Under the pieces are notes generated by a model that made no database searches, was not told where the DNA came from, and saw only the letters and a program-made list of their open reading frames with translations. 64,000 bases of DNA from a virus: positions 1-64,000 of the IMG/VR virus record IMGVR_UViG_3300031965_000022, one strand, 5' to 3'. This document shows positions 37 to 58,949 of this stretch, in pieces (positions within the stretch are counted from its first letter, which is position 1; every line of letters starts with the position of its first letter). The translations under genes were made by a program, and so were the position numbers.

Positions 37-62
37 GATGCAACCCCAGCTCTAGAGGTTGC
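37..62 (-). promoter_or_regulatory. near-copy of phage bipartite motif (CAACCT-N14-GCATC on minus strand)
   Basis: plus strand GATGC(37-41)-N14-AGGTTG(56-61); one mismatch to consensus; 19 nt upstream of ATG at 17. Confidence 0.4.
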
Positions 63-606
63 TTGTCTCCTCTGCCGCCTCGATCCCGATACAACAGGCG
101 CGTTGCAGCACCATATCGCCCGCCCCCTCCGGCATCGTCCTCGCCACCAGCGCCGCTGCCTCCCCCGCCCACTTTGCCTCCGTTATCCGCGCCGATGTCC
201 ACACCGCCCACAGCGTTGCCAAGGACGCTTCTTCTAGTGTCCGAACAGATCGGCACTGCGTTCGCACCTCTACAGACAACTCAGGTAGTTCTGCGATGAT
301 CTCTCGTACTGTCCGCAGTACAACAATCTGTGTCCACGCCTTCTGTCGTGTCTGCGACCACGCCTGAGAACCCCACAACGCCGCCAACAGCGGAAGCATT
401 TCCCTTGTGCGAATTCCATCATTTGAGAATCCATCATTCAAAAGGCGCACGTCAAACATGGTCACAGGCTGGCCACTCCATTCCCTTCCCTCCACCTGGG
501 AGACAAATTCCAGGGCACAGAACTCCCGACCCGGAGGATGGCTTCCCTTTCGTAACAACCCCTCGTCTAACTCCGCCAACTTCTCACGTAACATTTCAAT
601 TGTCAT
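52..606 (-). CDS. hypothetical protein
   Basis: ORF track 52..666; start moved to ATG 606 (MTIEMLREK) with AAGGAGG 5 nt upstream. Confidence 0.6.
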   Translation of the reverse strand: MTIEMLREKLAELDEGLLRKGSHPPGREFCALEFVSQVEGREWSGQPVTMFDVRLLNDGFSNDGIRTREMLPLLAALWGSQAWSQTRQKAWTQIVVLRTVREIIAELPELSVEVRTQCRSVRTLEEASLATLWAVWTSARITEAKWAGEAAALVARTMPEGAGDMVLQRACCIGIEAAEETSNL

Positions 607-625
607 TCGCGCCTCCTTTGTCAGA

Positions 626-748
626 TTAGGACACAAAAACCGCCCGCCCATGCTCCACAAGATCATCCAGAAACGACCTCACCTGATAATCCATGAAGGC
701 CCACCGCGCCAGCACCTCATCCTGGTCCCCCCGGATGCCCAACCTCAT
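626..748 (-). CDS. hypothetical small protein (40 aa)
   Basis: frame of ORF 626..832; ATG 748 overlaps stop of 745..951 (ATGA). Confidence 0.4.
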   Translation of the reverse strand: MRLGIRGDQDEVLARWAFMDYQVRSFLDDLVEHGRAVFVS

Positions 749-951
749 TTGGCCCCCAGTGCGGCCCTTGCCGCTGACAGCGCCGTGATTAAGCGGTTCA
801 TTTCCGGGGCGCGTTGTAGGTAAATCTCCCACCCCGGCTCCCCATGAAAGGTGCGGATGATGCCGATTGACTCTTCGGAGACTTTGAGCAAATCCGCAAG
901 GGCTTGGGCGAAGTACTCAGGGCTTCCGAGTTGAGGTGATCCTGCCGTCAT
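745..951 (-). CDS. hypothetical protein
   Basis: ORF track; ATGA overlap with stop of 948..1289; G9 run upstream acts as SD-like element. Confidence 0.55.
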   Translation of the reverse strand: MTAGSPQLGSPEYFAQALADLLKVSEESIGIIRTFHGEPGWEIYLQRAPEMNRLITALSAARAALGAK

Positions 952-1289
952 TGCTTTACTACCCCCCCCCTCAGTGCTGCATGGAGCGCCTTAAACTCCG
1001 GCGTGACCCGCAGCACGGTGTAAATCGCCTTGGCTTCGATGCGGTCGCAAAGCGCCTTTGCTAGAGTTTCCAACTGTTCGATTCGTTCCAGGTTGCCCAG
1101 ATAACCTGCCTCTGCGTTTTCATAATCCTGCTTTGTACACTCAACGCATACCGGGCAGAAAAGCTCGTATGCATCCGTGTGCAGGCACAGCTCTTGCCCG
1201 ATCGGGGCAATGCAATCGGGGCAAGCAACATGGCCTGCCCCTGCGGGTTGCGGTACTCTCCGTAATCCGTCACAGGTTCCGCACCTCAT
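948..1289 (-). CDS. Cys-rich zinc-ribbon-like protein
   Basis: CGTC...CPDC...CPVCVEC cysteine pairs in N-terminal half; ATGA coupling to upstream gene. Confidence 0.6.
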   Translation of the reverse strand: MRCGTCDGLRRVPQPAGAGHVACPDCIAPIGQELCLHTDAYELFCPVCVECTKQDYENAEAGYLGNLERIEQLETLAKALCDRIEAKAIYTVLRVTPEFKALHAALRGGVVKQ

Positions 1290-1618
1290 GCCTTTGCCTC
1301 CTTCTGCAAGCTCTTCAAGAGTGCGCAGCGTTCCTTCTCGGCCTTTTCCTCGTCAATCTCGAAGTATTCCGCCAAGAGGGTTGTAATAGGCCGATACACT
1401 GGTTGCCAGTGCGAGCCGGGACAAAAGCTCCCGCCGTCGCAAGGGCACTCTTTGATCTCTACATATTCCGCCAGGTGTATGCCCGCCGTTGGTAGCCACT
1501 CTAAAAACTCTCCAATTGCTTGCGACTCTTTGTGATGCGCCGCAATCTTGTCGAGTGTCGGTGTCCTGGGCGATTTAAGCTTTCCGGGAAGCATTGCCGT
1601 GTCGAATTTTCTTGTCAT
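1286..1618 (-). CDS. hypothetical protein
   Basis: ORF 1286..1741 trimmed to ATG 1618 (MTRKFD), which forms an ATGA overlap with stop of 1615..2445. Confidence 0.6.
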   Translation of the reverse strand: MTRKFDTAMLPGKLKSPRTPTLDKIAAHHKESQAIGEFLEWLPTAGIHLAEYVEIKECPCDGGSFCPGSHWQPVYRPITTLLAEYFEIDEEKAEKERCALLKSLQKEAKA

Positions 1619-2445
1619 GCCGCCACCTCCCGCAGTGCGGAGCCGTCCACGCACACAACCCCGGAGGATAGGCGAACCTCGTACATCCCGGACAACTGCC
1701 CCTCGCACACCTTGCCGATCGCGCCCTCGTAGCCGTTGCAAATAACACGGTCTCCGACGGCCCAGCGGCTTTTGCCGCTCTCTGCTAGCTCAATGGCGGC
1801 ACAGGCTGCGTCAATCTCAGGCCCATGCGTCCGGTTGTCGGTCGCCATGTCAAGCAACCCGCGAATCCCCGACAACAAACCGTCAAGGCGCGCTTGGTGC
1901 TTTCTGTGAATCTCGCCCCAGTTCACGCGGATATGTGCGGCAAGCCAGTGTTGTTTGCCGTCGTTAATATCGCCGGAGCATTCCGGGTTGCAAACCTGTT
2001 TCGGCTCATCCTCAATGGCGTACCTGTAGAGCACGTCGCAGGCTTCCTCAAATGCCTGCATGGATGCGAAGTACTGTCGGGAGGTAGTCGGCAGATCGTA
2101 CAGCCAAAAGTGACGGAATGGCCGTCCGTGCTCGACTGCCTTATTGACGGCTTCCTGGAGGATGCGGAACTTCCGTCCGTCCGCTTCCTTGCCCGTGGGG
2201 TTTACCTGGATAGCGTCTCCGGTCTCGAATTCATACCACTGATTCGAGTGAACCCGTAGCGTATAGGTTCCCTGGCCTGTCAAAAATAGCTTGCCGTCAG
2301 AGTCTTTTTCAAGGATTCTCCGGGCAAGTTCAACGTCCTCGATTGGCTCGGCTACAAAACCTCCATGAAGCGAGAATGAACGAACGTTTACCGCGCTCCG
2401 TAGGGCTGTTTTGGAGTGGCTTGAATTCTTTCGTATGCGTGTCAT
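1615..2445 (-). CDS. hypothetical protein
   Basis: ORF 1615..2613 trimmed to ATG 2445 (MTRIRKN); motif copy 2502-2527 lies 56 nt upstream. Confidence 0.65.
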   Translation of the reverse strand: MTRIRKNSSHSKTALRSAVNVRSFSLHGGFVAEPIEDVELARRILEKDSDGKLFLTGQGTYTLRVHSNQWYEFETGDAIQVNPTGKEADGRKFRILQEAVNKAVEHGRPFRHFWLYDLPTTSRQYFASMQAFEEACDVLYRYAIEDEPKQVCNPECSGDINDGKQHWLAAHIRVNWGEIHRKHQARLDGLLSGIRGLLDMATDNRTHGPEIDAACAAIELAESGKSRWAVGDRVICNGYEGAIGKVCEGQLSGMYEVRLSSGVVCVDGSALREVAA

Positions 2446-2497
2446 GCGTTCCCCCTTTCGAGCAGCAGGCGCTGGCGGATGATCTTGCACACTCAGG

Positions 2498-3061
2498 CTA
2501 GGATGCTTCCACCACCAACGGGGTTGTATCACCCAACCATGCAAGGGGAGGCATCTTTTGTTGTGATACTTCCCGGACGGGAAACCACACCTCCCCCTCC
2601 GGCCACGCCCCACCCCAACCCAGCCCCGGCTTTCCTTGCTGCATCCTTAAATTGCACACCCAACACACCGGCGTTACTTCCAAGGGCTTGAAATAATCCC
2701 GATGATCGTACACCTGAGCACGTTTTCCGCACCCCTGGGAACAAAACCCCCAAACAGTGTTGAGGTTCGGCAGCAGTCCCATTTTCACCGCCTTTGCCAC
2801 GCATTGATGCCCCCAATGCTGTAGCATTCCATAAGTCCACGGAAGCGTTCTCCAGGTGCTCGTCCCCGCTCCCTTACGAGGTACTAGCACTTTTACCTTT
2901 TTCTTGGCCCTCGACCCCCGTGAGGGTTCCATATACTTCACCCCACGCTGCGCGGCAGAAAGCATTTTGGGGGTTATGACAACCCCCTTAGCCTCCAAAC
3001 CCTGAAGCCACTTCATAGCAGCATACTCTCGCCCCCCACAGGGGAACCGAATTTGAATCAT
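2498..3061 (-). CDS. hypothetical protein, possible His-Me finger (HNH-like) nuclease
   Basis: C-x3-C ... DHRDY-x-KPL-x-V-x3-C-x2-CN resembles beta-beta-alpha-metal nucleases (recall only); GGAGG SD; sigma70-like promoter upstream. Confidence 0.45.
   Translation of the reverse strand: MIQIRFPCGGREYAAMKWLQGLEAKGVVITPKMLSAAQRGVKYMEPSRGSRAKKKVKVLVPRKGAGTSTWRTLPWTYGMLQHWGHQCVAKAVKMGLLPNLNTVWGFCSQGCGKRAQVYDHRDYFKPLEVTPVCWVCNLRMQQGKPGLGWGGAWPEGEVWFPVREVSQQKMPPLAWLGDTTPLVVEAS
2502..2527 (-). promoter_or_regulatory. phage bipartite motif CAACCC-N14-GCATC (candidate promoter)
   Basis: plus strand GATGC(2502-2506)-N14-GGGTTG(2521-2526); 56 nt upstream of ATG 2445. Confidence 0.6.
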
Positions 3062-3081
3062 AGATAGGAACCTCCAAAAAC

Positions 3082-3110
3082 AGCATACACCCCTATTTGT
3101 CTAAGATCAA
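3082..3110 (-). promoter_or_regulatory. sigma70-like promoter candidate
   Basis: minus strand TTGATC (3110-3105), 17-nt spacer, TATGCT (3087-3082), followed by GGAGG and ATG 3061. Confidence 0.35.
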
Positions 3111-3212
3111 TATAAGATATATATTGATAACAAAGAGAGTAGGGGTGTCTAAGTCTAAGCATAAACACACAATCAGTGTCAAAAAACTGACACCTGTGAC
3201 ACTTTTTGTCAC
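3106..3212. promoter_or_regulatory. cluster of inverted repeats in an AT-rich intergenic island (operator-like)
   Basis: ATCAATAT/ATATTGAT 3106-3128; GTGTCA-N6-TGACAC 3176-3193; GTGACA-N5-TGTCAC 3196-3212; direct GTCTAAG repeats around 3099-3160. Confidence 0.5.
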
Positions 3213-3304
3213 CCTTTCCGCCTCTGGTTGGGGCTTTGGTTGAAAATCGCTGAGGTTTGGGGGAGCCGAGCCGTTCCAAGGCTAGGCAGGGACGGTCTAA
3301 AAGT

Positions 3305-4120
3305 CTACCCCTCCTCATTCTGAGAGACACGCTCCCACCACGGCGGGCGGTCCCACCATTCCACCTCTTCTTCCCCGTCGGACCAAAAATCGACCGCCGG
3401 GTCACGTACAACAGGCAAAGATGCCCAATCCACTTTACACAAGCGCTCAATTACACATTCCAGATAATCTACCGCAAGGGTTTCCTGTGGCCTATGCTCG
3501 CAAGCATACCCTATACCCAGATTGCTACACTCTGGGATTATCTCGGTGTAGTTCGCAGAGTCAGTGAAGGTGCCGCTCCCCGGCTTATGGCCCAAGCCGA
3601 GAGCCTCTGCCAAGCCGAGGGCAAACTCCAAAGAACAACAAGGCCCATTCCACTGCTCGACAATAACATCCTCCGCCCCGCGACGGTCTAAGGAAAGGCA
3701 AATGTCAAACTTTTCGAGGATATGCGGATAGTGATAAGCCAAGTAATCACTTCCCTTCCCGCCGATTTCTTCTGCTCGGTGAAAAATGACCGAGACCGGA
3801 GCCTCCGCCTGGATCATCCGCAGCGCTGCATACACTCCTGCGCCGTCATCCGCTCCCAGGCAGTTAGACACCCTCTCCTTCGGGTGGAGAGACACAACCC
3901 CCTTGCGCTCCTGAATGCGCTGCATTCCCTCCGAGCGATGGACTGTATCAGTATGGACCGCAATCATTGTGCGGCTACCCTCACGAAGAAACAAACGGTT
4001 CCCATACTCATCCCGCTGGATGCCCGGCACCGAATCAATGAGGTGTCGGACGAACCGCTCCTCAGTTTTGCTGTATGCCGGACGGCGATAGGCAAGAATT
4101 TCAGCTAGTAATGGGTTCAC
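3305..4120 (-). CDS. clan MH (M20/M28/M42-like) zinc metallopeptidase
   Basis: metal-ligand style motifs HTDTV, GADDGAG, AEEIGGKG, later D and H; GTG start in GTGA overlap with upstream stop. Confidence 0.7.
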   Translation of the reverse strand: MNPLLAEILAYRRPAYSKTEERFVRHLIDSVPGIQRDEYGNRLFLREGSRTMIAVHTDTVHRSEGMQRIQERKGVVSLHPKERVSNCLGADDGAGVYAALRMIQAEAPVSVIFHRAEEIGGKGSDYLAYHYPHILEKFDICLSLDRRGAEDVIVEQWNGPCCSLEFALGLAEALGLGHKPGSGTFTDSANYTEIIPECSNLGIGYACEHRPQETLAVDYLECVIERLCKVDWASLPVVRDPAVDFWSDGEEEVEWWDRPPWWERVSQNEEG

Positions 4121-5247
4121 CCAGACACCTCCTCTTCCTCTACTTCCTCTTCCGGCTCACAGGTACAATCCTCTACCAGATTCTCACACTCTCCGCAGCG
4201 CTCACACTCGCAGTCATCCGCCAGCTTTCCGCATTCCCCGCAACGCGAGCATCGGCAAGCGGAGAAACGAGCATCCACAACCTGGTCGCATTCTGGACAA
4301 TACTCGCAGTCACAGATATCGTGGGTGCGGCAATTTTCGCAGTGCTCGCAAATCGTGCAAGCCTCACAGTAAGGGTAGTAGTTCTCCTCGCAGCACTCGC
4401 AAAAACTACACTGACAATCATCCTCATCGCGGTCGCAGCGCTCGCATTGTAGGAGGTCGGCGGTACTAGCTGTACCGTCCGTCCGATCCCCAACATAATC
4501 ACCACCCTCAGATTCCACTACCCAATAACCCCCCCTGAGGGAAACACTCATTCCCCCATTATCCAGGTACGGCAAGACTTCATCTCCGTGGCGCAAGGGC
4601 AGACGATTCAATCGGCTCCCGGTTAGCTCGCCAAAATGATATCCCTGCTCGCCCAAAAGAGTCCGCAGCATAGAACAGTACGCCTCTGCACCTCCGACCG
4701 CATAAAGGCGCACGTATCGACTATCCTTTGTCGATACCACGGACCTGGCAACAATGTTACCGTATTGCATCAGGTACGCGACCGCCACGTCCGGGGAATC
4801 TGCATACACATGGTATGGCCTATGCTCCCAGGACGTAAATTTTCCGTGCATACAGGACACAGTTGTAGAGTCACACGGACACATCGCGGTCTCAAAGATG
4901 CGGTCAATGGTTTCCCTATCACTCGCAAACCGCAGCACGTACTCGTCTGCAGTCTCAACATAAGCCACGGCTGCGCGGAGTGCTACCACCCTCCGTTGTG
5001 TCTCACAGTCGCTCAGAGCGGGGAAGTACCTCTTTAGATACCTCCCGAACTTCATCCTCGTTTGCCGATCCCGCTCGCCATGCGGAGCGGAGGCAGTGAA
5101 GGCGACCATTTCGGGCGCACCATCCGTAGTAGATAGGTGTAGGAAGTGCTCTGGCTCAATTTCCAAACCACCCACCGCCTCCGAGGGAATCGGTTTGTAT
5201 TCCCCTGAGATGAGGCGGGCTTGTTCACGTGCCTGCCAAGGTTCCAT
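4117..5247 (-). CDS. hypothetical protein with extremely Cys-rich acidic C-terminal tail
   Basis: ORF 4117..5283; ATG 5247 (MEPWQ) follows a G10 SD-like run, alternative ATG 5283; last 109 aa hold 26 Cys, mostly as CxxC. Confidence 0.7.
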   Translation of the reverse strand: MEPWQAREQARLISGEYKPIPSEAVGGLEIEPEHFLHLSTTDGAPEMVAFTASAPHGERDRQTRMKFGRYLKRYFPALSDCETQRRVVALRAAVAYVETADEYVLRFASDRETIDRIFETAMCPCDSTTVSCMHGKFTSWEHRPYHVYADSPDVAVAYLMQYGNIVARSVVSTKDSRYVRLYAVGGAEAYCSMLRTLLGEQGYHFGELTGSRLNRLPLRHGDEVLPYLDNGGMSVSLRGGYWVVESEGGDYVGDRTDGTASTADLLQCERCDRDEDDCQCSFCECCEENYYPYCEACTICEHCENCRTHDICDCEYCPECDQVVDARFSACRCSRCGECGKLADDCECERCGECENLVEDCTCEPEEEVEEEEVSG

Positions 5248-5297
5248 TATTCCCCCCCCCCTTCGGTATGACGCTCGTACCATTTAGCGTTGTTGGG

Positions 5298-5357
5298 TTA
5301 TTCACACGCTACTTGCATCAGGGACGCTAGTTCCTTGTAGAGCGGACGTGTCATCAT
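5298..5357 (-). CDS. micro-ORF (19 aa, MMTRPLYKELASLMQVACE)
   Basis: AGGAGGG SD; 37 nt downstream of motif copy 5395-5420; too short to judge. Confidence 0.2.
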   Translation of the reverse strand: MMTRPLYKELASLMQVACE

Positions 5358-5394
5358 TGTTGCCCTCCTACTTTGGCGATTCGGACACCCATAC

Positions 5395-5420
5395 GATGCG
5401 CGGGTGCGTCGTGGGGTTGC
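5395..5420 (-). promoter_or_regulatory. phage bipartite motif CAACCC-N14-GCATC (candidate promoter)
   Basis: GATGC(5395-5399)-N14-GGGTTG(5414-5419). Confidence 0.55.
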
Positions 5421-6001
5421 CCAGGCCGCAGCCGCAGCCCGCCGGCCTGGCTGCGACCGCACCCGCACCCATCTCGTGGCTGCTACTTCGTACCGAAGAA
5501 ACCCCTTACCCCCCAGGAACGCAAAGGTCTAACGTCAGACCTTAGCGGTAGCTGCGATCCCCGGGGCGGTGGCACTCCGGCCTGGTGCAGCCCCGTGGCT
5601 GCGGCCATGCCGAGGCTTCCACCCCAGCCCTTAGGTGTGTGTGTGATGGTACCGCCCCCAGCACCACATGCCATTTTGGGCGGGCAACCTGCTTCAACGG
5701 CCATCACTCCACCTCTCTGGTTGGGACCACAAGATGTTGTGGGTCGACAGAGGCGGTGGCACAACCCGTCCGGGGTCCCAGGGTGGGGGCCGCCCAGCGG
5801 GGGCAACTCCGGGTCCTTCGCGGGACCCCCCGAAGGGGTACCTAAATTGTTACGGGGTGTGTGAGTTGGGGTGGGTTGGTGGAGGTTGCCATCTTTGGGA
5901 GGGTGGTTGGGCAGATTTTGCACCGCCGCTGCACAACTCTGACTGTAAGTTGTTGATAATTGCGGGGGGCTGGAAAGTTGGTGGGGTACCCTGGGAGGTA
6001 C
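5421..6001 (-). ncRNA. candidate large structured non-coding RNA or long structured intergenic region
   Basis: ~580 nt between two complete genes; only Pro/Gly-rich SD-less ORFs open in five frames; at least 7 tight GC hairpins including a nested helix at 5709-5759. Confidence 0.3.
5486..5507 (-). repeat. copy of AAGGGGTTTC-N-GGTACGAAG element
   Basis: plus CTTCGTACCGAAGAAACCCCTT; same element occurs three times at 49861-50003. Confidence 0.6.
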
Positions 6002-6304
6002 CTATGTAGTGGTTGGGGGCGTGTTGGCGATTTCCAACAGAGAATCCCCATGACAAGCCCTAGGAGCACACCAGCATCCAAAGACCTCGTTGGGGCGCTT
6101 TACGATCTCCTCACGGACCTTTCGTCGGTCGTACCCACGAATTACGTCAGGCCCGAAAACACCTGTAATCCAGTGGCGGTGTTTCAGAACGACCTCTTTT
6201 CGGGTCCCATCAACGCCAATCCTAAAGGGATTACCAAAGAGGGTGGTGCGGTCTATCAACAGGTCGTAGGGTTCTCGCTTGCAGTGAACTACTTTGGCGG
6301 GCAT
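6002..6304 (-). CDS. DUF4326-like protein
   Basis: KVVHCKREPYD..GNPF..CWC.P..CHGD pattern recalled for DUF4326; TAATG coupling. Confidence 0.7.
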   Translation of the reverse strand: MPAKVVHCKREPYDLLIDRTTLFGNPFRIGVDGTRKEVVLKHRHWITGVFGPDVIRGYDRRKVREEIVKRPNEVFGCWCAPRACHGDSLLEIANTPPTTT

Positions 6305-6648
6305 TATACCAACCTCCTCGTCGCCTCGTCCGGCACCACTGACTCATCTTGGTGACGCTTGCGCCAATCCCGAGGTGAGACGAACCCGGCGGTCTTCATC
6401 GGACCTTGTTCGGTGAGGATGAATGCCATATCTGTCATGGCGCTCAGACTCGGACCCGACTCCTTACGGCTGTAGGCGCTGCACCGGACGATCTGATCTT
6501 TAATCGGCGCTGGATTATCCCAGGAGACGCCGTGGCACCAGATACGCTCCCCTTGGCTCTCGCCCTGCATAATGACCGCGTGGTTGCAAGAGTCGCAGAG
6601 ACGCTTGGAGGGGGTGGTGCCGGAGCGGACGTTGAAGTGGATGCTCAC
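6304..6648 (-). CDS. hypothetical protein
   Basis: ORF 6304..6705 trimmed to GTG 6648, which forms a GTGA overlap with stop of 6645..6812. Confidence 0.55.
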   Translation of the reverse strand: MSIHFNVRSGTTPSKRLCDSCNHAVIMQGESQGERIWCHGVSWDNPAPIKDQIVRCSAYSRKESGPSLSAMTDMAFILTEQGPMKTAGFVSPRDWRKRHQDESVVPDEATRRLV

Positions 6649-6812
6649 TGGATCGTCTCCTTTTTGGCTCCCGGCGTCATCTTGGTGCCGCAGAAGCAAC
6701 AACAAGTCAACATTGGCGCATCCTCAGCTTGGCACAAGATAAGGCGCGTGCAGTGTGGGCAGAGGGCCGCAGCGAGGTGGAGCAGTCCGATGGGGCGATC
6801 ATCGGTGCTCAC
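6645..6812 (-). CDS. small Cys-rich protein (CPHC...CCCFC)
   Basis: ORF 6645..6848 trimmed to GTG 6812 (GTGA overlap with phosphoesterase stop, GGAGGG SD). Confidence 0.4.
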   Translation of the reverse strand: MSTDDRPIGLLHLAAALCPHCTRLILCQAEDAPMLTCCCFCGTKMTPGAKKETIQ

Positions 6813-7924
6813 TCCGCCCTCCACGCTGTCCAACAAAACGCCCCCCACCGGGGATGACTCAAAAAGCTAACCTGTGCGGGCGCGGAGTGCCGTCCGACCC
6901 CATGATCGAACTCGCTGGTGCCACTTAGCGAGCCGTTCACCAAAATCCCCCCCTCAATGATGGCTGGCACATGAAAGTGCCCAAGGGTGAGGTAGTCAAA
7001 CGCAATCTCTGGGCGGCGCATCCGCTTGAACCCCTCCCGCAGAGTGTGACGTGACATCCCCATATAGGGGATTCCCTGCCACGACTTGATGGTGTCGCCG
7101 TGTTCTGCCAAATACTTCACGCCGTCCAGGTTGACGACGTGCCGGAGCCCAGCGGGGAACTCGATGTCCACATTCTTGAGGGCGCTGAGGCGGGCATTCG
7201 CCACGGTGTAGACAAGGAAGCTCATGTTATTGGCCGACTTCTGTTTGAACTGCGGCTTGGGCTGGAGCCTGCCGTGGTTGTCAGCCCCCACTTCTACCAC
7301 CTTCACGTGCTGGAAGTGCGGGGCTAACTTGATAACCGCCTCCGCGAAGAGGTGTCCTGCGTTTGCGGCTTGCACCGGAAGCGGAAACTCATTGGTCCTC
7401 AACAGTTCGCTGTGGATGTCCCCTGACACCCAATCCCCAAGGCCGAGAATGCACAGGCGGGGGATGTTAAAGCTGGCGCGAAACATCTCTACCTGCTCTA
7501 GGAACTTTGTGGTGATGCGGTCCACCCGCTGTTGGGCGATAGCCCAGTTGAAGGTGCCGAAACCTTCTGTCTCATCCGCCTCGATCACCTCCCCGATATG
7601 CCAATCGGATAGCATCAAGACGGCGGTGAGGGGGCTGTGCTCCGAGGCAGTGGGTGTGAAGTTCAGAGGTGGGGGGTCGGCTGCGGTAACAGCCGATGCG
7701 ATCTGGTCAGTCAACTCACGTAGGAAGCCCCGGCTTTTCCGAAGTCTGGTGTTGTCGGCGGTCAGGCGCTTGATCTCCGTGCGGAGGTGCGCCTCCCTCT
7801 CAGTTGGGGGTAGGGTGTCACTTGTGGCAGATCGTGCAGATGCACACTGCGGACACTTCAGTACGTCCTGACGGAACACCTTTTCTTTATTACAGCTTGG
7901 ACAAAGACGTTTAACAGCTTTCAT
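6809..7924 (-). CDS. calcineurin-like metallophosphoesterase with N-terminal zinc ribbon
   Basis: SDWHIG, GLGDW, GADNHG, GHFH motifs in canonical order; CPSC...CPQC at N-terminus; ATG 7924 in ATGA overlap, AAGGAG SD. Confidence 0.75.
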   Translation of the reverse strand: MKAVKRLCPSCNKEKVFRQDVLKCPQCASARSATSDTLPPTEREAHLRTEIKRLTADNTRLRKSRGFLRELTDQIASAVTAADPPPLNFTPTASEHSPLTAVLMLSDWHIGEVIEADETEGFGTFNWAIAQQRVDRITTKFLEQVEMFRASFNIPRLCILGLGDWVSGDIHSELLRTNEFPLPVQAANAGHLFAEAVIKLAPHFQHVKVVEVGADNHGRLQPKPQFKQKSANNMSFLVYTVANARLSALKNVDIEFPAGLRHVVNLDGVKYLAEHGDTIKSWQGIPYMGMSRHTLREGFKRMRRPEIAFDYLTLGHFHVPAIIEGGILVNGSLSGTSEFDHGVGRHSAPAQVSFLSHPRWGAFCWTAWRAE

Positions 7925-8079
7925 TGGCTCTCCTTTCGCCACGATCCATCCGATTGTACTACATAAACGGTGCCATTGGCGGCTACCACCTGAGCGCCGG
8001 GTGGGAAGCCAGTCCCCTTTAGGGGGTGCCGCTTGGACTTCTTCACGATTTGTGGGGGCTTTGGAATTTTAATGGGCAT
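7921..8079 (-). CDS. hypothetical small protein (52 aa)
   Basis: ATG 8079 (MPIKIPK) with AAGGAGG 6 nt upstream. Confidence 0.5.
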   Translation of the reverse strand: MPIKIPKPPQIVKKSKRHPLKGTGFPPGAQVVAANGTVYVVQSDGSWRKESQ

Positions 8080-8260
8080 TAGGGGCCTCCTTTGCGGCCT
8101 TCCGCCGCACCCTTTCAAGAATCTCTGCGCACGCTTGGCACACCCAGATGGGCTGCCGCATCACCCGGTCCTCTACCACCCCCCAGCATCTCTGGCGAGT
8201 ACCGCAGAGGGGGCAGCGGATGATGCCGAATCGTCGGCCTAGGTGGGCAAACAGGGTCAT
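8069..8260 (-). CDS. small zinc-ribbon protein
   Basis: CPLC...CQAC pairs; ORF track. Confidence 0.55.
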   Translation of the reverse strand: MTLFAHLGRRFGIIRCPLCGTRQRCWGVVEDRVMRQPIWVCQACAEILERVRRKAAKEAPNAH

Positions 8261-8535
8261 GCTTCCTCCTTGTAGACATCATGGCCCCACACCCGCACCG
8301 CCCCGTGGACCTCCACCCCCCTGATGATCTCGCGCCATGCAGCGGCATTTACATCTCCGGTGGGTGAGAGCGTTAGGGGCCGTAGGGTCGGTAGGTCCTC
8401 TTCATAGATGGTGATGCCCGTGGCTGCGAAGCGGGTGGGGAAACGGAGGTTTAGGGTCTCCAACATTTGGGCTGGGGACGCGGCCACCAGGGGGGTGCCT
8501 GCTGGTACTGGTGCGTGGTAGAGGGTGGTCTTCAC
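8257..8535 (-). CDS. hypothetical protein
   Basis: GTG 8535 in GTGA overlap with upstream stop; AAGGAGG 5 nt upstream. Confidence 0.55.
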   Translation of the reverse strand: MKTTLYHAPVPAGTPLVAASPAQMLETLNLRFPTRFAATGITIYEEDLPTLRPLTLSPTGDVNAAAWREIIRGVEVHGAVRVWGHDVYKEEA

Positions 8536-8720
8536 TTGGCCTCCTTTTCGGCATCCGCCGCATCCGCAATCAGCCGTACCAGCGCCGTCCACCCATCAGT
8601 GCGGTGGTGCCCCCTTACGGTCCCCCTCCAGATGGGTGTTTCATTGATCCACGCACCCACTTCGTAGTCGCTCACCTCAGCTAGGTTACTAAGGTTGCGG
8701 GCTGTGATGATAAGGGCCAT
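8532..8720 (-). CDS. hypothetical protein
   Basis: ATG 8720 (MALIITARN) 2 nt after the sigma gene stop. Confidence 0.5.
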   Translation of the reverse strand: MALIITARNLSNLAEVSDYEVGAWINETPIWRGTVRGHHRTDGWTALVRLIADAADAEKEAK

Positions 8721-8722
8721 TC

Positions 8723-9166
8723 TTAGAGACCTCTGCTCTTGATCGATACTGCATCCGCAATCCCCCACTCCTCAAGTGACAACAGCCGCCTACGAGCCCT
8801 GCCCCCTGCATGGGTCTTTGTGCTGTAGAATCTATTTAGGACTAATAGTTTCGTCTGTGTAATCAACACCGCATGTGGGGAACGACCCTCAAATCCTTCG
8901 TCTATGCGCCGCATCGTCTGCAAAAAGGTGTCCTGAGTGATGTCTTCCGCATCTGCCCAATTGTGCGTCATGCTCAGGGTGAAGTGGAGCACCCTAAGGT
9001 AAAGGGGCAGATACCGCACCTCAAACTCCTCACGTCGGCGCTTGTGCAGGCTTTGGGCCTCGGCCTTTCGTTCCAGGCGCTCCAGGTCAGAGGGCGGGGC
9101 GGGGGTAGCCCGACGGGGCTGGTGCTTGGACTTTCGGAGGCTGGCGAGGAAGTCGTTTTGGGTCAT
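8723..9166 (-). CDS. minimal sigma-70 family (ECF-like) sigma factor
   Basis: region 2 signature WADAEDITQDTFLQ followed by LITQTKLLVLNRF; short C-terminal LSLEEWGIADAVSIKSR resembles a truncated region 4 HTH; only 147 aa. Confidence 0.55.
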   Translation of the reverse strand: MTQNDFLASLRKSKHQPRRATPAPPSDLERLERKAEAQSLHKRRREEFEVRYLPLYLRVLHFTLSMTHNWADAEDITQDTFLQTMRRIDEGFEGRSPHAVLITQTKLLVLNRFYSTKTHAGGRARRRLLSLEEWGIADAVSIKSRGL

Positions 9167-9174
9167 CTTAAACC

Positions 9175-9345
9175 TTAGATGCTCCTCGGGGCCGTGGGGT
9201 TGTCTAGCCGAATGACCGAACCGTGACGCTCACACCGCCACCCAATCGGCTCATTGGCGGTGTTGTAGAGGCTGACAAAGCAGGGAGCGCCACAGTGGGG
9301 GCAGGGGCGGGCGTTGGGGTCGTGGACTTGGTGGATTTTATTCAT
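9175..9345 (-). CDS. small zinc-ribbon protein (56 aa, not in ORF track)
   Basis: MNKIHQVHDPNARPCPHCGAPC...WRCERH; TAATG coupling to 9345..9551; its 3' end contains motif copy 9178-9203. Confidence 0.45.
   Translation of the reverse strand: MNKIHQVHDPNARPCPHCGAPCFVSLYNTANEPIGWRCERHGSVIRLDNPTAPRSI
9178..9203 (-). promoter_or_regulatory. phage bipartite motif CAACCC-N14-GCATC directly upstream of the sigma gene
   Basis: GATGC(9178-9182)-N14-GGGTTG(9197-9202); 11 nt upstream of ATG 9166. Confidence 0.6.
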
Positions 9346-9551
9346 TATTCCTCAGGTGGGGCATCTTCCCCCCACTCACCAATGAGATTCCCGCACCAGT
9401 CTACAGAGTACCATATCTTGCGTTGGACTCCACGATGGCCATATGGCTCGGCAGGAGTTCCTGCAAGTGCGTTGACGTGCCACGGGTCATCCACTAACTC
9501 AAAGTGGTGATGGGAAGGACTGAGGCGCTTCATTTTATCCTTGGTGGTCAT
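9345..9551 (-). CDS. hypothetical protein
   Basis: ATG 9551 in ATGA overlap with upstream stop. Confidence 0.5.
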   Translation of the reverse strand: MTTKDKMKRLSPSHHHFELVDDPWHVNALAGTPAEPYGHRGVQRKIWYSVDWCGNLIGEWGEDAPPEE

Positions 9552-9775
9552 ATTGCGTGGCTCCACTCTCCACCTCCTTCGTAGCGCAGGCCGTGCCGGG
9601 TTGCAACCACAGCTAATCGGTCCTCCGCATCCTCCAAGTCGAAGGTCGGCTCACCGACCCAAAAGGTGGCTGCAAACTCCCCACCCACCTGCTCCTCTAT
9701 CAAGGGTTGGTAGCAAGGCGCTTGGCGCACTACTGACTCGTCAATGAAACCGTGGAGGCGACGTTCAGGTCTCAT
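9548..9775 (-). CDS. hypothetical protein
   Basis: ATG 9775 (GTG 9778 alternative) with AAGGAG upstream. Confidence 0.5.
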   Translation of the reverse strand: MRPERRLHGFIDESVVRQAPCYQPLIEEQVGGEFAATFWVGEPTFDLEDAEDRLAVVATRHGLRYEGGGEWSHAI

Positions 9776-9992
9776 CACTTTGCTCCTTGATTACAATAAC
9801 TCGTAGGTCTGGGCCGGGAGATGTAGTTTCTACCAAAAATGTCACCCCCTCCGGAGAACCTTCAACCCCAACCAGGACAGCATCCTCCGGGAATCCCTCC
9901 AACACCTCAGTCCTCTTCTTTGGAGGCCACTTAGCCCCTGTTTGAAACAACTGCCTCAGCAACTCGAACGAGAATCGAAATTTAACGTGCAT
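9765..9992 (-). CDS. hypothetical protein
   Basis: ATG 9992 (GTG 9995 alternative) with AAGGAGG upstream, coupled to ATPase stop. Confidence 0.5.
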   Translation of the reverse strand: MHVKFRFSFELLRQLFQTGAKWPPKKRTEVLEGFPEDAVLVGVEGSPEGVTFLVETTSPGPDLRVIVIKEQSDET

Positions 9993-11005: not shown

Positions 11006-11021
11006 TCAGACTCCTTAACCC

Positions 11022-11050
11022 TTGACATCTTTGCGGGGATGTGGTATGTT
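11022..11050 (+). promoter_or_regulatory. sigma70-like promoter candidate for the plus-strand block
   Basis: TTGACA (11022-11027), 17-nt spacer, TATGTT (11045-11050), in the gap between the divergent blocks. Confidence 0.4.
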
Positions 11051-11068
11051 TGGGGAAGGTATTTCCCT

Positions 11069-11926: not shown

Positions 11927-12032
11927 TGGGCACCTCCTTAATTGATCTACAAATCCGGTTACACACTCGAACTCGTGAAAGTCAAGGGCCAGTGGCGTCT
12001 GGTGTTGAGGTCGCTGCCCCCAAAGTAACTTA

Positions 12033-47739: not shown

Positions 47740-47746
47740 AACTCCC

Positions 47747-48022: not shown

Positions 48023-48048
48023 GATGCCCCGGCGCTCAGTGGGGTTGT
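48023..48048 (-). promoter_or_regulatory. phage bipartite motif CAACCC-N14-GCATC (candidate promoter)
   Basis: GATGC(48023-48027)-N14-GGGTTG(48042-48047). Confidence 0.6.
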
Positions 48049-49314: not shown

Positions 49315-49340
49315 GGTGCAGGAAGCTCGGGGCGGGTTGG
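49315..49340 (-). promoter_or_regulatory. weak near-copy of the bipartite motif (CAACCC-N14-GCACC)
   Basis: GGTGC(49315-49319)-N14-GGGTTG(49334-49339); 88 nt upstream of ATG 49226. Confidence 0.25.
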
Positions 49341-50682: not shown

Positions 50683-50787
50683 TCAGAGCAAAATCCTTCG
50701 CCCCTCTTTAACCGCCCAACGAAACCTAGCCCTTGTGTCGGTCAGTGTCGCCCGCTTGGCTGCTCGTTTCTCAGCTTTGGTCAGCAT
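50683..50787 (-). CDS. basic micro-protein (34 aa)
   Basis: GGAGGA SD; 20 nt below motif copy 50808-50833. Confidence 0.35.
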   Translation of the reverse strand: MLTKAEKRAAKRATLTDTRARFRWAVKEGRRILL

Positions 50788-50807: not shown

Positions 50808-50833
50808 GATGCCCCGGAGGCCGTCGGGGTTGC
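50808..50833 (-). promoter_or_regulatory. phage bipartite motif CAACCC-N14-GCATC (candidate promoter)
   Basis: GATGC(50808-50812)-N14-GGGTTG(50827-50832). Confidence 0.6.
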
Positions 50834-50939: not shown

Positions 50940-51005
50940 CTACCACTCCCAAGGTAACTTCTCCTGTTGAGAAGCAGCAGCAAGCATTTCATCTAAACTA
51001 CTCAT
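50940..51005 (-). CDS. micro-ORF (21 aa); alternative is ORF 50771..50992
   Basis: AAGGAGGA 6 nt upstream of ATG 51005; 21 nt below motif copy 51027-51052. Confidence 0.25.
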   Translation of the reverse strand: MSSLDEMLAAASQQEKLPWEW

Positions 51006-51023: not shown

Positions 51024-53669
51024 TCAGATGCCCCGAAGACCATCCGGGTTGTCCGGCGACCACTCCGCCAAGTTCCGTCCCACCTTGCCCTCCGCGCCGA
51101 TGCTGAGGCCGCCCAGTTGAGGCCACGCTTGGGTGAAGCCTTGTTGCAGGACCGCCACGGCGTCCGGCACCTGTGCGTCCGGCACCTCCGCCGCAATCTC
51201 GTCGTGGATGATGAGCCGCAGCAAAGCCACCAACCAGGGGTGATGCTCTGCGACCCACAGCAGCACCTCTGTCTGGATGCCCGAGGCTGTGCCCTGGGGC
51301 TTGAAGGCGATGCACCGCTTGGCATCGTCGCCTAGCCGCCACTTCCCATACTTCTTGTCATAGGTGAAGACGTTGTAAAACTCATGCCAATAACCCACAG
51401 GAGTCTTTAACACATGCTCCTTATGCGCAAGTGTCAGCGTGGCATTCTGCCAACGTACTACGTCCTTGCCGGGGTCGGTGTTGAAGTACAAGTCCTGAAG
51501 GTCCTTCGCTTCCTTTTCGTTGCGGAAGTGCTCAGGATATTCCTCAAATATGCGCCCCGGCGTACCCTTGTAGTTTGAAAGGTGGACGACACGTTTTATC
51601 ATCTCCCTCTCAACCGGAAATGCCTTCTTGATGGCCTTGCACCGGGCGCGGAGTTCCTCATCCGGCAGATCAAGGGGAATTGGTTGCCCCACCTTCACAG
51701 AAGTAACCCAGTCATGGACGCCCATCTTGGCGAGACGGATGTACCGCGCCGATCCCGCAAAGTAACCCACCAGGACGGCCTCAATGGCTGAGGAGTCAAA
51801 GGCTACAAATTGGTGTCCTGGGGCAGCAACGATCATCCGCCGGAACTGTTGGGCCAAATCTGACCGCTTCGGAATGTTCTGCGAGTTGACCTGATAACTA
51901 TTCTTACGCCATGTACTGGGGTTGAAGCCGTAGTGGGTCCAGATGCGGATGCAGGTCTTGGGGCCATCGGGGGACTCATGGGCCTCCTCGGGGCCGCCCC
52001 AAATGTAGGTGGTCAACATCTTGTTCGACTCTCGACAGTCGAGGAGGGTGCGGAACGCCGGGTGTTTGTGCACCAACTTCTTCAGATGCTTGGCCTCGGT
52101 GGTCGCTTTTTGCTCCCGATGGTTCATGGGCACTGGCAACCTCAGCGCCTTGATAAGCGCCACTACCTGCTGCGACGAGTGGGGGTTAAAGGGCTTCAGC
52201 CACCCCATGTGCCCATCTTGCTCTACAAGGTGGACATGGCTCAACAGGGTATCACGGATTACCGGGGGTAACTCCTTGGCCTTGGAGCCCAAGACACCAA
52301 GCGGAGGCACTGCCCCAGCCTTGGGCGGCTTCTTGTATCCATTCTTGGGGTGGAGGTTGCGAGCCTGAGCAGGCACCATGCTCTGAAGGGCATCCACATC
52401 GGCCACATACCGCGCCTCCACCTTCTCCCGGAACCGATCCTGTTCAGCCTTGTCGATAAGAAATCCAGGCCGCGTCATCTGCACCAAAATCTCATCCGTC
52501 TCTACACAATGCCGCCAGAAGGCTTCCCACCTGCCCTCGGCCCGCAAGCGCTCCTCGGTGTAGCGGCGGATGGCGTTTTGGATAACGTGATCCATTCCGT
52601 TGTAGTAGGCTGGGGACTCCGATGAAAGCTGTTTCCACGGTGGCCCGTTGTGGACCAGTGGCGCAACGAAGCCCAGCGCCTTTGGCAGGTCGCTCTTGTA
52701 GAAGTGCCACATCCACATCCCAGAGGCCCATCGTCGTGCCTTGAGCCCCGCCTTGGTCAGCCGCACAGAGTCGAAGTGGCGGTTGGTCCATTCCCAGCAG
52801 GTCGTGGCCCGACCCATCACCTCTGCAAGGATGTCGATGTACGGCCACTCATAGGGGAAACTGACCGCTACCCCCGGCTCCAGCGCAAACCCAGCGCGGA
52901 TGATGTTAAAGCTGCTGTCGCGGGTCTCCCCCGGAAGCTCATCCTCTTCGGCCTCCACATCTAGGTCGATGTCATCCTCATCCAGGTCAGCAGACTCCGG
53001 GGTCTCAATGTCGATGTCCACATCCCCAAGGTCAACGGGGAAGAGGTCAAGGTAGGTTCTGAGGTCGCTCGGTGTGGGGTCAAGGATCAACTGGTACTGT
53101 GACGGCTCATAGGTGCCGTTGGCGATCCGCTGCGCCCGCTTGAGGGCCACAAGGATCATTGGGGAGAGCTTCTGCTTCCCCTGCAACACATAGCTGGGGT
53201 GGAAGGTGGGGACAGCCGGGATGCCCCACACCGACTCATGGACGTATCCTTGAGCCTTCTCGATGCCGCTGATGCCACAGGCTCGGCCCAGAGCCACATT
53301 ACCCATTGGGACGATCACCCGAGGTTTGCGCTCCTCCACAAGTTGGTCGAGGTAGGGGCGGCAGTGCTGAAGGGAGGCATAGGCGTCGGGGGTGCGGTTG
53401 GCGTTGTCGGTCCACCCTAACTTTGGGGGCTTACACCACATGGAGTTAGCGGTGGTGACAGCCCGACGGTCAAGGCCCAGCCACTTCAGCCACTTTCCTT
53501 CATAGAGGTGGCCCGCCGCGCCGCTGAAGTTACGGTTTGCGGCCATCTCATCCCGCCAAGGGCTGTCGCCCAGGAAGAGGATGCCGCTGGAGCCATCCCC
53601 GTCAGCTTGGATGAACCGCTCACCGTGGGGTTGGTTGGGGCAGCCGCCGCAGATGGGGCCGGTTGGCAT
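51024..53669 (-). CDS. family A DNA polymerase fused to N-terminal UDG-like domain and 3'-5' exonuclease domain
   Basis: pol motifs A (FDSSAIEAVL), B (KRVVHLSNYKG), C (IIHDEIA); exo motifs DIET and WTNRHFD; N-terminal family-4-UDG-like GILFLGDSPW ... FHPSYVL. Confidence 0.9.
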   Translation of the reverse strand: MPTGPICGGCPNQPHGERFIQADGDGSSGILFLGDSPWRDEMAANRNFSGAAGHLYEGKWLKWLGLDRRAVTTANSMWCKPPKLGWTDNANRTPDAYASLQHCRPYLDQLVEERKPRVIVPMGNVALGRACGISGIEKAQGYVHESVWGIPAVPTFHPSYVLQGKQKLSPMILVALKRAQRIANGTYEPSQYQLILDPTPSDLRTYLDLFPVDLGDVDIDIETPESADLDEDDIDLDVEAEEDELPGETRDSSFNIIRAGFALEPGVAVSFPYEWPYIDILAEVMGRATTCWEWTNRHFDSVRLTKAGLKARRWASGMWMWHFYKSDLPKALGFVAPLVHNGPPWKQLSSESPAYYNGMDHVIQNAIRRYTEERLRAEGRWEAFWRHCVETDEILVQMTRPGFLIDKAEQDRFREKVEARYVADVDALQSMVPAQARNLHPKNGYKKPPKAGAVPPLGVLGSKAKELPPVIRDTLLSHVHLVEQDGHMGWLKPFNPHSSQQVVALIKALRLPVPMNHREQKATTEAKHLKKLVHKHPAFRTLLDCRESNKMLTTYIWGGPEEAHESPDGPKTCIRIWTHYGFNPSTWRKNSYQVNSQNIPKRSDLAQQFRRMIVAAPGHQFVAFDSSAIEAVLVGYFAGSARYIRLAKMGVHDWVTSVKVGQPIPLDLPDEELRARCKAIKKAFPVEREMIKRVVHLSNYKGTPGRIFEEYPEHFRNEKEAKDLQDLYFNTDPGKDVVRWQNATLTLAHKEHVLKTPVGYWHEFYNVFTYDKKYGKWRLGDDAKRCIAFKPQGTASGIQTEVLLWVAEHHPWLVALLRLIIHDEIAAEVPDAQVPDAVAVLQQGFTQAWPQLGGLSIGAEGKVGRNLAEWSPDNPDGLRGI
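51027..51052 (-). promoter_or_regulatory. phage bipartite motif CAACCC-N14-GCATC (candidate promoter) inside the last codons of the polymerase gene
   Basis: GATGC(51027-51031)-N14-GGGTTG(51046-51051). Confidence 0.6.
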
Positions 53670-57320: not shown

Positions 57321-58018
57321 TTCGCACCCTTCGCTTTTATTGCATACACCCGTCCAATCTTCTCTTGCGCCGTTTTGGTATCTCCATCAGCAAAGGTGAC
57401 AGAGATGGGCAGTTGATTATTTTCGTCACGGGGCGGCCAAGGATTCTGCGGGTTCCTCCCCTTCCTCGGGCTTGTGCTGAACACTTGGGGGCCGGTCTCG
57501 AACTTCTTGTACGACTCCCAAATAAGCGACCCCTTGGCGAAGTGCGTGCCACTCCCGGCCTCCAGAACCCGACGCAACATCTCCTTGAAGTCAGCAGGTC
57601 CCTGCTCAGCCAGAAGGCTTTTCCCTTCCTTACGGTGCAAGCCGGCGTGCAACGCAATCAGATCGTAGGGCTTACTCTTAAACTCCTTCGTTTGCGGATC
57701 ACGTTCCGGTGGACGGACCCAAATGCGGTTGTAGGTAATGGGAACCTCAGACTGTCCAGTGTCACGGCGAAGTCGCCCAGGCCCAAGGTCCGCGACCTGC
57801 ACATGAGCCGTGTAAGTGATTTGGTGTGCAGTTTCGCCTTCTTGCGGCTCTTTGTGATCGGTCACTTCAAAGCGGAAGTAAACGGTGCCGGGGAGGATGC
57901 GGGGCTCAAATTCTCCCCCGCTTTGTACATCAGCCTCGGTAAAGATATAATCGGCTCCGAGGTCATCTTGCAAATCTTTCGGGATTTCTTCTGTTACGGT
58001 CGAAAAGATGTCAGTCAT
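57317..58018 (-). CDS. hypothetical protein
   Basis: AAAGGAG SD; 33 nt below motif copy 58052-58077; no diagnostic motif. Confidence 0.6.
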   Translation of the reverse strand: MTDIFSTVTEEIPKDLQDDLGADYIFTEADVQSGGEFEPRILPGTVYFRFEVTDHKEPQEGETAHQITYTAHVQVADLGPGRLRRDTGQSEVPITYNRIWVRPPERDPQTKEFKSKPYDLIALHAGLHRKEGKSLLAEQGPADFKEMLRRVLEAGSGTHFAKGSLIWESYKKFETGPQVFSTSPRKGRNPQNPWPPRDENNQLPISVTFADGDTKTAQEKIGRVYAIKAKGAK

Positions 58019-58263
58019 CGTTGTCTCCTTTGAGTTCGGTCATTTTGGTTTGATGCCCCCACCGCTGCGGGGGTTGCCTTTCTCTCTCTCCAGATTGCAG
58101 CCACCACTAAACCCGATTTAACAGCCCAACACACTGTACGGTACGGCATCGAATACAAAAACCCAAAGTGCATTGGTTTTTGCCCCCACATAACAAACTG
58201 ATTGTGATCTAACCATCGTTGTAGGTGGGCAAGGTCGTCAAATTTAGCCGCACGGGTATACAT
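58015..58263 (-). CDS. hypothetical protein
   Basis: ATGA overlap downstream; its 3' end contains motif copy 58052-58077. Confidence 0.5.
   Translation of the reverse strand: MYTRAAKFDDLAHLQRWLDHNQFVMWGQKPMHFGFLYSMPYRTVCWAVKSGLVVAAIWRERKATPAAVGASNQNDRTQRRQR
58052..58077 (-). promoter_or_regulatory. phage bipartite motif CAACCC-N14-GCATC (candidate promoter)
   Basis: GATGC(58052-58056)-N14-GGGTTG(58071-58076). Confidence 0.6.
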
Positions 58264-58265
58264 GA

Positions 58266-58901
58266 CTACACATCCATTAAAGCCTCTGAGGATCGCGCCC
58301 CCGGTACAAGGTCCTTCTCAGTCTCATCTATCATACCGCTTGCGGTCATAGACATGGTAAGGCGGCGGATCGCCTTAGTCATCGTCTTGTCAATGGCACG
58401 GGCGAGGCCATCCGCTTGACCCACCCCCCCAATAAAGGTGGAGGCACAGTTGATCTCCTCCCGCCCCGTTTCCAACTCCCGCCCCCGTACCCAAATGGTA
58501 AGCATGTCAGCCGTCCGCTCTACACGGATGGGTTCTCCGGGACCAAAATCAATCATCCCAATACCTCGGCGGGGACCGGGAGGGAGCCTAAGCTGATCGC
58601 CCGCTCCTCGATTCGCATATAGGACCGTGCGCTTCTTTCCTGAGCGGTCAGTAGTCTCGATCACATCGAATGGCTTTGATAAGGGGTCCAACCCCATCAT
58701 CTTGCACCGCCACAAATAATATGCAGTGCGTACCTTTGGCGAGAGTACCGCCAAGTTTCCACCCGTCAGAAGTTCGGCGGCGGAGTCGTCGGGGAGGTCA
58801 TCAACCGCCAACTCTAATTGAGTAGCTAACCGCTCTCGCATAGAAAGGGACTCCCTTTTAACCAGTGTTCCCCCGTGAACAACCTCAGCAATTTGAGCCA
58901 C
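58266..58901 (-). CDS. possible single-strand annealing protein (RecT/Sak-like)
   Basis: YYLWRCKMMGLDPLSKPF and TKAIRRLT segments resemble annealing proteins (weak recall); GTG start behind GAGGAGGA. Confidence 0.45.
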   Translation of the reverse strand: MAQIAEVVHGGTLVKRESLSMRERLATQLELAVDDLPDDSAAELLTGGNLAVLSPKVRTAYYLWRCKMMGLDPLSKPFDVIETTDRSGKKRTVLYANRGAGDQLRLPPGPRRGIGMIDFGPGEPIRVERTADMLTIWVRGRELETGREEINCASTFIGGVGQADGLARAIDKTMTKAIRRLTMSMTASGMIDETEKDLVPGARSSEALMDV

Positions 58902-58923
58902 TTTAATTCCTCCTCATTGATTG

Positions 58924-58949
58924 GATGCCCCCAACGCTGCGGGGGTTGC
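58924..58949 (-). promoter_or_regulatory. phage bipartite motif CAACCC-N14-GCATC (candidate promoter)
   Basis: GATGC(58924-58928)-N14-GGGTTG(58943-58948); 22 nt upstream of GTG 58901. Confidence 0.6.

Follow-up and report, generated by a model that had tools for sequence, protein, structure and literature searches.

Phage sigma factors that serve private promoter sets are already known. The late sigma of phage T4, gp55, has only a region-2-like domain and works with gp33 and the sliding clamp, at promoters that consist of a single -10 element (TATAAATA) and have no -35-like block. The sigma of Salmonella phage 7-11, gp47, reads a set of eight late promoters of the form GTAAtg-N16-aCTA (PMC8948821), while phiEco32 gp36 reads the single-element sequence tAATGTAtA and is helped by gp79 (PMC8948821, PMC12276001). 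For cellular extracytoplasmic function (ECF, or group IV) sigmas, typical promoters have AAC as part of the -35 element and CGT as part of the -10 element, and the sigma regulates its own gene (PMC5758882). Here we analysed 64,000 nucleotides (hereafter the window) of IMGVR_UViG_3300031965_000022, from an uncultivated phage of ~66 kb, in which the bipartite motif CAACCC-N14-GCATC recurs on the minus strand upstream of minus-strand genes, and in which the open reading frame (ORF) 8723-9166 encodes a 147-amino-acid (aa) protein with an ECF-type sigma region 2. What is new with respect to the known systems is the pairing of a region-2-only sigma with a putative bipartite promoter. With moderate confidence, we read the motif as a set of ~12 phage-specific promoters used by the host core RNA polymerase together with the 147-aa phage sigma.

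The motif is real, strand-specific and fixed in its spacing, and it is conserved in one relative. We found nine exact plus-strand matches to GATGC-N14-GGGTTG in the window, each of which reads CAACCC-N14-GCATC on the minus strand, and no plus-strand copy of CAACCC-N14-GCATC; in 100 dinucleotide-preserving shuffles, this pattern occurred 0.09 times on average and never more than once. All nine copies listed by a first-pass annotation of the window were recovered on one strand, and its remark that no copy in plus orientation lay in the regions it checked held across the window for both the exact pattern and the minimal common core, CAACC-N15-GCATCnnA, for which we counted 10 minus-strand occurrences against none on the plus strand. 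When the distance in CAACC-Nx-GCATC was scanned from x = 5 to 30 on the minus strand, there were 10 occurrences at x = 15 and one at x = 16, and the remaining values of x up to 23 gave none. Taken singly, the pentamers CAACC and GCATC are neither rare nor depleted and show no strand bias. The weight-matrix scan that the annotation had proposed as a check was bimodal, with ten sites at 23-34.5 bits standing clear of the next best at 16.4 bits. Aligned copies gave the consensus rGrCAACCCC-N10-GGGGCATCtnA, in which the A three bases past GCATC is invariant; since the stop codon of the upstream gene overlaps this nnA in just 5/16 sites, and in differing frames, the A is part of the motif.

The genome is circular or circularly permuted, with a length of 65,948 bp, most of which the window covers: a Logan contig joins window position 64000 to position 1 through 1,948 bp, and the resulting length agrees with that of a 66,089-bp ENA contig less a 141-bp assembly overlap. 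A further exact copy (CAACCCCGGCGGGTAGGGTTGCATC) falls in this 1,948-bp gap, where it precedes an 89-aa gene by 23 nt, and brings the genome total to 11 N15 copies and one N16 variant. All copies lie on the coding strand of a replication-gene block, whose minus-strand genes occupy 1-12,400 and 43,600-64,000 and encode a UDG-PolA DNA polymerase, a PD-(D/E)XK nuclease, an RNA-ligase-like protein and an AAA_25 helicase-like protein, in addition to an exonuclease, methyltransferases, a deaminase and an HNH endonuclease. No copy was found in the plus-strand structural block (12,408-43,565), which encodes the large terminase, an SU10-type portal and adaptor, the capsid and a protease. The window copies are as follows.

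37-61, minus strand: motif copy with CAACCT for CAACCC, 26.5 bits; an ATG preceded by a GAGGAGG Shine-Dalgarno follows 19 nt downstream and starts a 160-aa gene that lies mostly beyond the window.
2502-2526, minus strand: motif copy, 31.8 bits, 56 nt upstream of a 276-aa gene (start 2445) and overlapping the 3' end of the upstream 187-aa gene.
5395-5419, minus strand: motif copy, 23.0 bits, in a 235-nt intergenic region; a 19-aa micro-ORF with a strong Shine-Dalgarno (start 5357) and then a 376-aa gene (start 5247) follow downstream.
9178-9202, minus strand: motif copy, 29.6 bits, overlapping the end codons and stop of the upstream 56-aa zinc-ribbon ORF; the start codon of the sigma-like gene follows 11 nt downstream.
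12033-12057, minus strand: motif copy, CAACCCCCAAAGGGAACGGGGCATC, then taA, 33.2 bits; leading copy of the leftward gene block, with a 73-aa ORF 106 nt downstream (start 11926).
48023-48047, minus strand: motif copy, 31.9 bits, 24 nt upstream of an 83-aa gene (start 47998).
50808-50832, minus strand: motif copy, 33.0 bits, 20 nt upstream of a 34-aa ORF (start 50787) with an AGGAGG Shine-Dalgarno.
51027-51051, minus strand: motif copy, 29.0 bits, in the end codons of the UDG-PolA DNA polymerase gene, whose stop TGA comes directly after GCATC; a 21-aa micro-ORF starts 21 nt downstream (start 51005).
58052-58076, minus strand: motif copy, 34.1 bits, 33 nt upstream of a 233-aa gene (start 58018).
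58924-58948, minus strand: motif copy, 34.5 bits, 22 nt upstream of a 211-aa gene (GTG start 58901).
62644-62669, minus strand: N16 variant, CAACC-N16-GCATC, inside the 3' part of the PD-(D/E)XK nuclease gene.

Across the window, copies stand 11-106 nt before start codons that have a Shine-Dalgarno, as had been claimed, and in five of them the GGAGG core of the Shine-Dalgarno begins 10-12 nt past GCATC; three of the 'genes' counted in that claim are, however, micro-ORFs of 19, 34 and 21 aa. These micro-ORFs (5298-5357, 50683-50787 and 50940-51005, minus strand) lie directly downstream of three copies, have AGGAGG-type ribosome-binding sites and could encode small proteins or leader peptides. 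Several copies overlap the end codons of the preceding gene (e.g. 9178, 2502 and 51027), which also agrees with the annotation. Two one-mismatch copies had been reported; both are present, and the one at 37-61 groups with the strong sites, whereas the one at 49315-49339 falls outside the top weight-matrix matches listed, the lowest of which scores 7.5 bits. We consider this site and another at 62990-63014 (13.9 bits) probably non-functional. The longer-spacer copy that the annotation had described is the N16 variant, possibly a weaker promoter. The next-best weight-matrix match, at 31554-31578 on the minus strand (16.4 bits, GGAAC...AGCATCCAA), is probably a chance match, assigned as antisense inside a 995-aa plus-strand gene (28382-31369). 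In L177, a near-identical strain from a different sample (SRR33174183) that was compared with L176, the gap copy and the N16 variant are both kept; the gene calls of L177 are without the 63-aa ORF downstream of the DUF7336 gene.

Homologues of the phage DNA polymerase occur on 54-70-kb metagenomic contigs. In the closest relative found (L091; ENA ERZ27247783:k141_223057), whose DNA polymerase is 69% identical, we examined 22.5 kb of the 60.8-kb contig and found four CAACC-N15-GCATCnnA copies and one N16 copy, all on the gene strand and none on the opposite strand; in a blind de novo enumeration of this locus, the motif was the top-scoring dyad. Each L091 copy lies 8-31 nt upstream of an ORF start, all five retain the A three bases past GCATC, and one lies in the 3' part of a PD-(D/E)XK homologue, like the N16 variant of the window. 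Their spacers are unrelated to those of the window and are without C and G runs; that the blocks and their spacing are kept between unrelated spacers favours a two-part DNA signal over an RNA hairpin. Conservation in related phages, which the annotation had named as a test, thus extends to L091, but not to relatives with polymerase identities of 61%, 57% and ~44%, in which no copy was found in the 15-23 kb examined. De novo dyad and k-mer searches of L093, L095, L178-L180 and L181 (polymerase ~44-61%) found no alternative motif; an apparent dyad in L178 was rejected because it consisted of coding repeats that lie antisense to a tail gene. No close relatives came from near-identity DNA or tblastn searches of GenBank phages, nor from IMG/VR scans in which the sigma, its alignment, the polymerase or the DNA motif served as query; in the motif scan, the 80 matches listed of 89 were each a single chance match.

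A protein with sigma region 2 is present in the phage, and a motif copy stands before its gene.

8723-9166, minus strand: sigma-like gene, encoding the 147-aa ECF-type sigma region-2 protein.

The annotation had suggested this product as the factor to combine with host core polymerase, and the family and fold matches agree with that choice. It matches Pfam Sigma70_r2 (27.0 bits vs. a curated cut-off of 24), many ECF-type NCBIfam models (all over residues ~45-120, region 2), the PHROG family 'RNA polymerase sigma factor' and, by sequence, ECF sigma chains in the PDB. The AlphaFold2 (AF2) model has a predicted local distance difference test (pLDDT) score of 83.5 overall and >95 over residues 21-110, with four confident helices at residues 27-115 and a 27-aa basic tail (121-147) predicted to be disordered. 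In a PDB fold search with this model, the top-listed matches were ECF sigma chains (e.g. SigH, SigL, SigR and sigmaE), with E-values that start at 5.8e-3 and none <=0.001; against the isolated SigR region-2 fragment, the target-normalised TM-score was 0.78 and the root-mean-square deviation 2.4 A. Most top matches in a viral fold library were phage ECF-type sigmas, with the GAP52 ECF sigma at rank 23 (probability 0.47).

Neither a phage RNA polymerase gene nor a detectable sigma region 4 is present. Family matches to the 147-aa protein end at ~residue 120 and none covers region 4; no other ORF of the genome (~110 ORFs) matches Sigma70_r4 or a helix-turn-helix (HTH) family, and a custom sigma4 profile run over the genome gave a best E-value of 11 and no candidate partner. 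An exhaustive HMMER search recovered short homologues of 106-131 aa that have the same architecture, share a basic C-terminal motif and adjoin replication genes in other phage contigs; because these short homologues share the architecture, the region-2-only truncation is a family trait and not an assembly error. One of them, a 131-aa region-2-only protein (L181 3143-3538), lies immediately upstream of a PolA gene on an unrelated 59,242-bp phage contig (JGI, sample 3300045391), where there are also genes for an integrase and for another Sigma70_r2 protein, of 197 aa. When JGI metagenomes were scanned with the sigma alignment, nearly all matches were cellular ECF sigmas of full length, and the motif was not enriched. 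Two small zinc-ribbon-like ORFs (CxxC...C/H pairs) occur on the minus strand near the sigma gene, 9175-9345 directly upstream of it and 8069-8260 three genes downstream, and we speculate that they may be sigma partners.

The earlier proposal of an alternative-sigma promoter set is supported in silico by the sigma region-2 ORF, by the motif copy before it and by conservation in L091, and we reasoned that such a set could operate as follows. Host RNA polymerase with its primary sigma would start leftward transcription, possibly at this site.

12489-12517, minus strand: sigma-70-type match, TTGTCA-17-TATAAT, 11/12; a consensus match only.

This is the best and the sole near-consensus sigma-70-type site of the region, it lies upstream of the sigma gene and of every motif copy in the leftward block, and its sequence suggests a candidate early promoter for the host polymerase. 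Early leftward transcripts would include ORF 8723-9166, and its region-2-only product would bind the host core RNA polymerase and is probably what reads the motif. GCATCnnA would then act as a -10-like element with initiation near the motif, a few bases downstream, and CAACC, 15 bp upstream, as a -35-like element read either by a separate partner protein or by the basic tail of the sigma. The copy at 9178-9202, 11 nt before the ATG, is a candidate autoregulatory promoter through which the sigma would boost its own gene, while the other copies would let it switch on the minus-strand replication and nucleotide-metabolism module. Leaders would be very short, and two genes would be near-leaderless: starts 7-9 nt past GCATC would give leaders of 0-3 nt for the sigma gene and one L091 gene.

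The plus-strand structural genes would not use the motif. Several TTGACA/TGTCAA repeats and an extended -10-like TGATACGCT lie at 13953-14120, after the terminase gene, and a CTCACA-17-TATAAT site lies at 17562-17590, before the portal gene; both are candidate host-type promoters for these motif-free genes. The structural module also contains a tRNA-Thr (anticodon TGT) at 17359-17435, just 5' of the portal gene, and a strong intrinsic-terminator-like hairpin at 25964-25990 (10-bp stem with 8 GC pairs), directly 3' of a 320-aa gene that ends at 25921. In the minus-strand block, a tandem (ACCNCG)n array (59243-59385, periods 6 and 24, ~24 copies) lies inside ORF 59241-59729, the encoded C-terminus of which becomes a WS/RS/GS dipeptide repeat.

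Set beside the described systems, the locus shares features with ECF sigmas and with phage 7-11, and departs from both. Like cellular ECF sigmas, the 147-aa protein has the region-2 sequence and fold, and its promoter set would have an AAC upstream element and a copy before the sigma's own gene; the distance (AAC-N17-CATC) compares with the ~16-17 bp spacer to a C(A/G)TC-like element of ECF promoters, and a homopolymer adjoins the -35 element in both (a C-run here, a T-run in Bacillus). Unlike them, it has no region 4 and no recognised anti-sigma partner, its downstream element is GCATCnnA instead of CGT(C/A), and it is phage-encoded and would serve phage replication genes. The copy before the sigma gene shows the same mixture, with AAC present and an ECF-compatible spacing, but with CATC and not CGTC as its downstream block. 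As with 7-11 gp47, a phage ECF-like sigma would act on the host core RNA polymerase at a small bipartite set with a fixed ~16-bp spacer on the coding strand, with a promoter consensus confined to close relatives. In 7-11, however, region 4 of gp47 explains the -35 element and the set drives late genes, whereas the 147-aa protein is without region 4, the copies here precede replication genes and the sigma gene and no structural gene, and the consensus differs.

The portal and adaptor match Pfam SU10 families, of the phiEco32-like phage group, and tie the phage loosely to that group. Like phiEco32 gp36, a middle-gene product that redirects host RNA polymerase, the 147-aa protein has weak or no region 4 sequence similarity, and gp79, a small cofactor that stabilises the gp36 complex, is a precedent for an unrecognised partner here. 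In contrast, gp36 has a structurally sigma4-like C-terminal domain where the 147-aa protein has just 27 disordered residues after region 2, and phiEco32 has one conserved promoter element instead of two. The fold match of the AF2 model to gp36 (9m7y_F) is weak (rank 34, probability 0.33), and tblastn against 50,697 phage records gave no match to any GenBank phage, gp36 and gp47 included. T4 gp55 is likewise a minimal -10-reading, clamp-helix-binding module that needs separate proteins for full activity, although T4 late promoters are unlike the motif in having a single element.

Several points weigh against a promoter set read by the 147-aa protein. Promoter function is our inference from sequence; the sigma has no region 4, the usual reader of a -35 element, and this leaves the conserved CAACC unexplained. 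The -10-like element has CAT, where CGT is usual for ECF sigmas. Middle and late genes are the usual targets of phage sigmas, and yet the structural module is without a copy. No sigma homologue was found in the examined 22.5 kb of L091, which shares the motif, and the spacers fold somewhat better than shuffled ones (mean z ~ -1), so that self-complementarity may have some role. In a tentative extension, which we hold to be possible but doubtful, region-2-only sigmas (106-147 aa) would form an uncharacterised phage family, each the half of a split sigma that reads the -10 element, while a separate small flap-docking phage protein, for which the zinc-ribbon ORFs are candidates, would read CAACC, giving a bipartite orthogonal system that would run the replication module with near-leaderless transcripts.

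The strongest alternative, though an unlikely one, is that the motif is a promoter set read by another factor, either a host ECF-type sigma or a host sigma redirected by a phage activator (in the manner of T4 MotA/AsiA), with the 147-aa protein in some other role, for example as a decoy or in hindering the binding of host sigma. The phage protein is without the region 4 that would read CAACC, the AAC...C(A/G)TC geometry is generic to cellular ECF promoters, and a profile search of all ORFs in the polymerase-centred loci, including the examined part of L091, found no sigma homologue. That part is just 22.5 of 60.8 kb, however, and whereas the sigma gene of the window genome lies ~21.6 kb upstream of the polymerase, the L091 locus extends 10 kb upstream. 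A motif copy directly before the sigma-like gene is the typical layout of ECF autoregulation. If the factor were shared with the host, the motif should be conserved more widely, whereas its absence from the 15-23 kb examined where the polymerase is <=61% identical fits a fast-evolving specificity factor encoded by the phage.

Quite improbable in our view, and less so only than the two readings that follow it, is an RNA-level motif: long leftward transcripts would be processed there or would carry a hairpin that stabilises the 5' end, with messenger RNA (mRNA) ends just 5' of the Shine-Dalgarno as the result. The motif is strand-specific and lies near ribosome-binding sites, and CCCC-GGGG or CAACC-GGTTG pairing is possible in most window copies. 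The annotation had noted the CCCC...GGGG complementarity of the spacer, which is seen in most window copies but is missing at 2502, 5395 and 9178 among the nine exact ones. When 16 sites were folded, some formed stable hairpins and 4/16 reached z < -2 vs. spacer shuffles; because the C and G runs beside the blocks create pairing potential alone, this weak fold signal is confounded. For about one third of the sites, the fold is not more stable than in shuffled controls (e.g. window 9202, window 2526 and L091 8273), and the pairing register varies by site (CCCC/GGGG, CAACC/GGTTG or GATGCGC/GCGCATC), with loops of 4-10 nt and a free 15-nt spacer sequence. Among the invariant parts (CAACC and GCATC set 15 nt apart, and the A) there is no mutual complementarity, and L091 retains blocks and distance while losing the C and G runs. 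Rfam gave no match at the motif copies (only the tRNA was found), and no copy lies among the terminator-like sites (GC-rich hairpin with a T-run). The hairpin alternatives that the annotation had kept alongside a sigma promoter are weakened by the varying registers and by the several sites with no stable hairpin; the invariant features (two non-complementary blocks, one A and a fixed distance) agree with a two-part reader that recognises duplex DNA, and would not be accounted for by a conserved RNA structure.

A hairpin-type promoter as in N4, or one for a single-subunit RNA polymerase as in T7, which a phage polymerase that escaped recognition would read, is in our view very unlikely. Hairpins could form at several copies and many ORFs are without a detectable family, but none of the ~110 ORFs scanned has an RNA polymerase domain, and no minus-strand protein is larger than the DNA polymerase. 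The hairpins of N4 combine fixed stems with short loops, and a promoter of the T7 type is one contiguous block, whereas here the 15-nt spacer is free and the loops span 4-10 nt. The least probable reading is a non-transcriptional DNA signal for replication, recombination, packaging or a phage DNA methyltransferase: the phage encodes adenine methyltransferase-like proteins and GCATC is known as a type IIS restriction site, but neither block alone is depleted or strand-biased, and such a signal does not predict a composite tied to positions 8-106 nt before start codons on the coding strand of one block.

Sequence alone has here yielded a candidate regulon, with ~12 promoters, a probable specificity factor and an autoregulatory loop, in a phage lineage with relatives neither in culture nor in GenBank. 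If confirmed, a region-2-only sigma that works with a strictly spaced two-element promoter would raise the question of what reads the -35-like block, and would provide a very small orthogonal sigma/promoter pair for synthetic biology. The signal would serve replication genes and not late genes, and in this it would depart from the textbook phage-sigma cascade.

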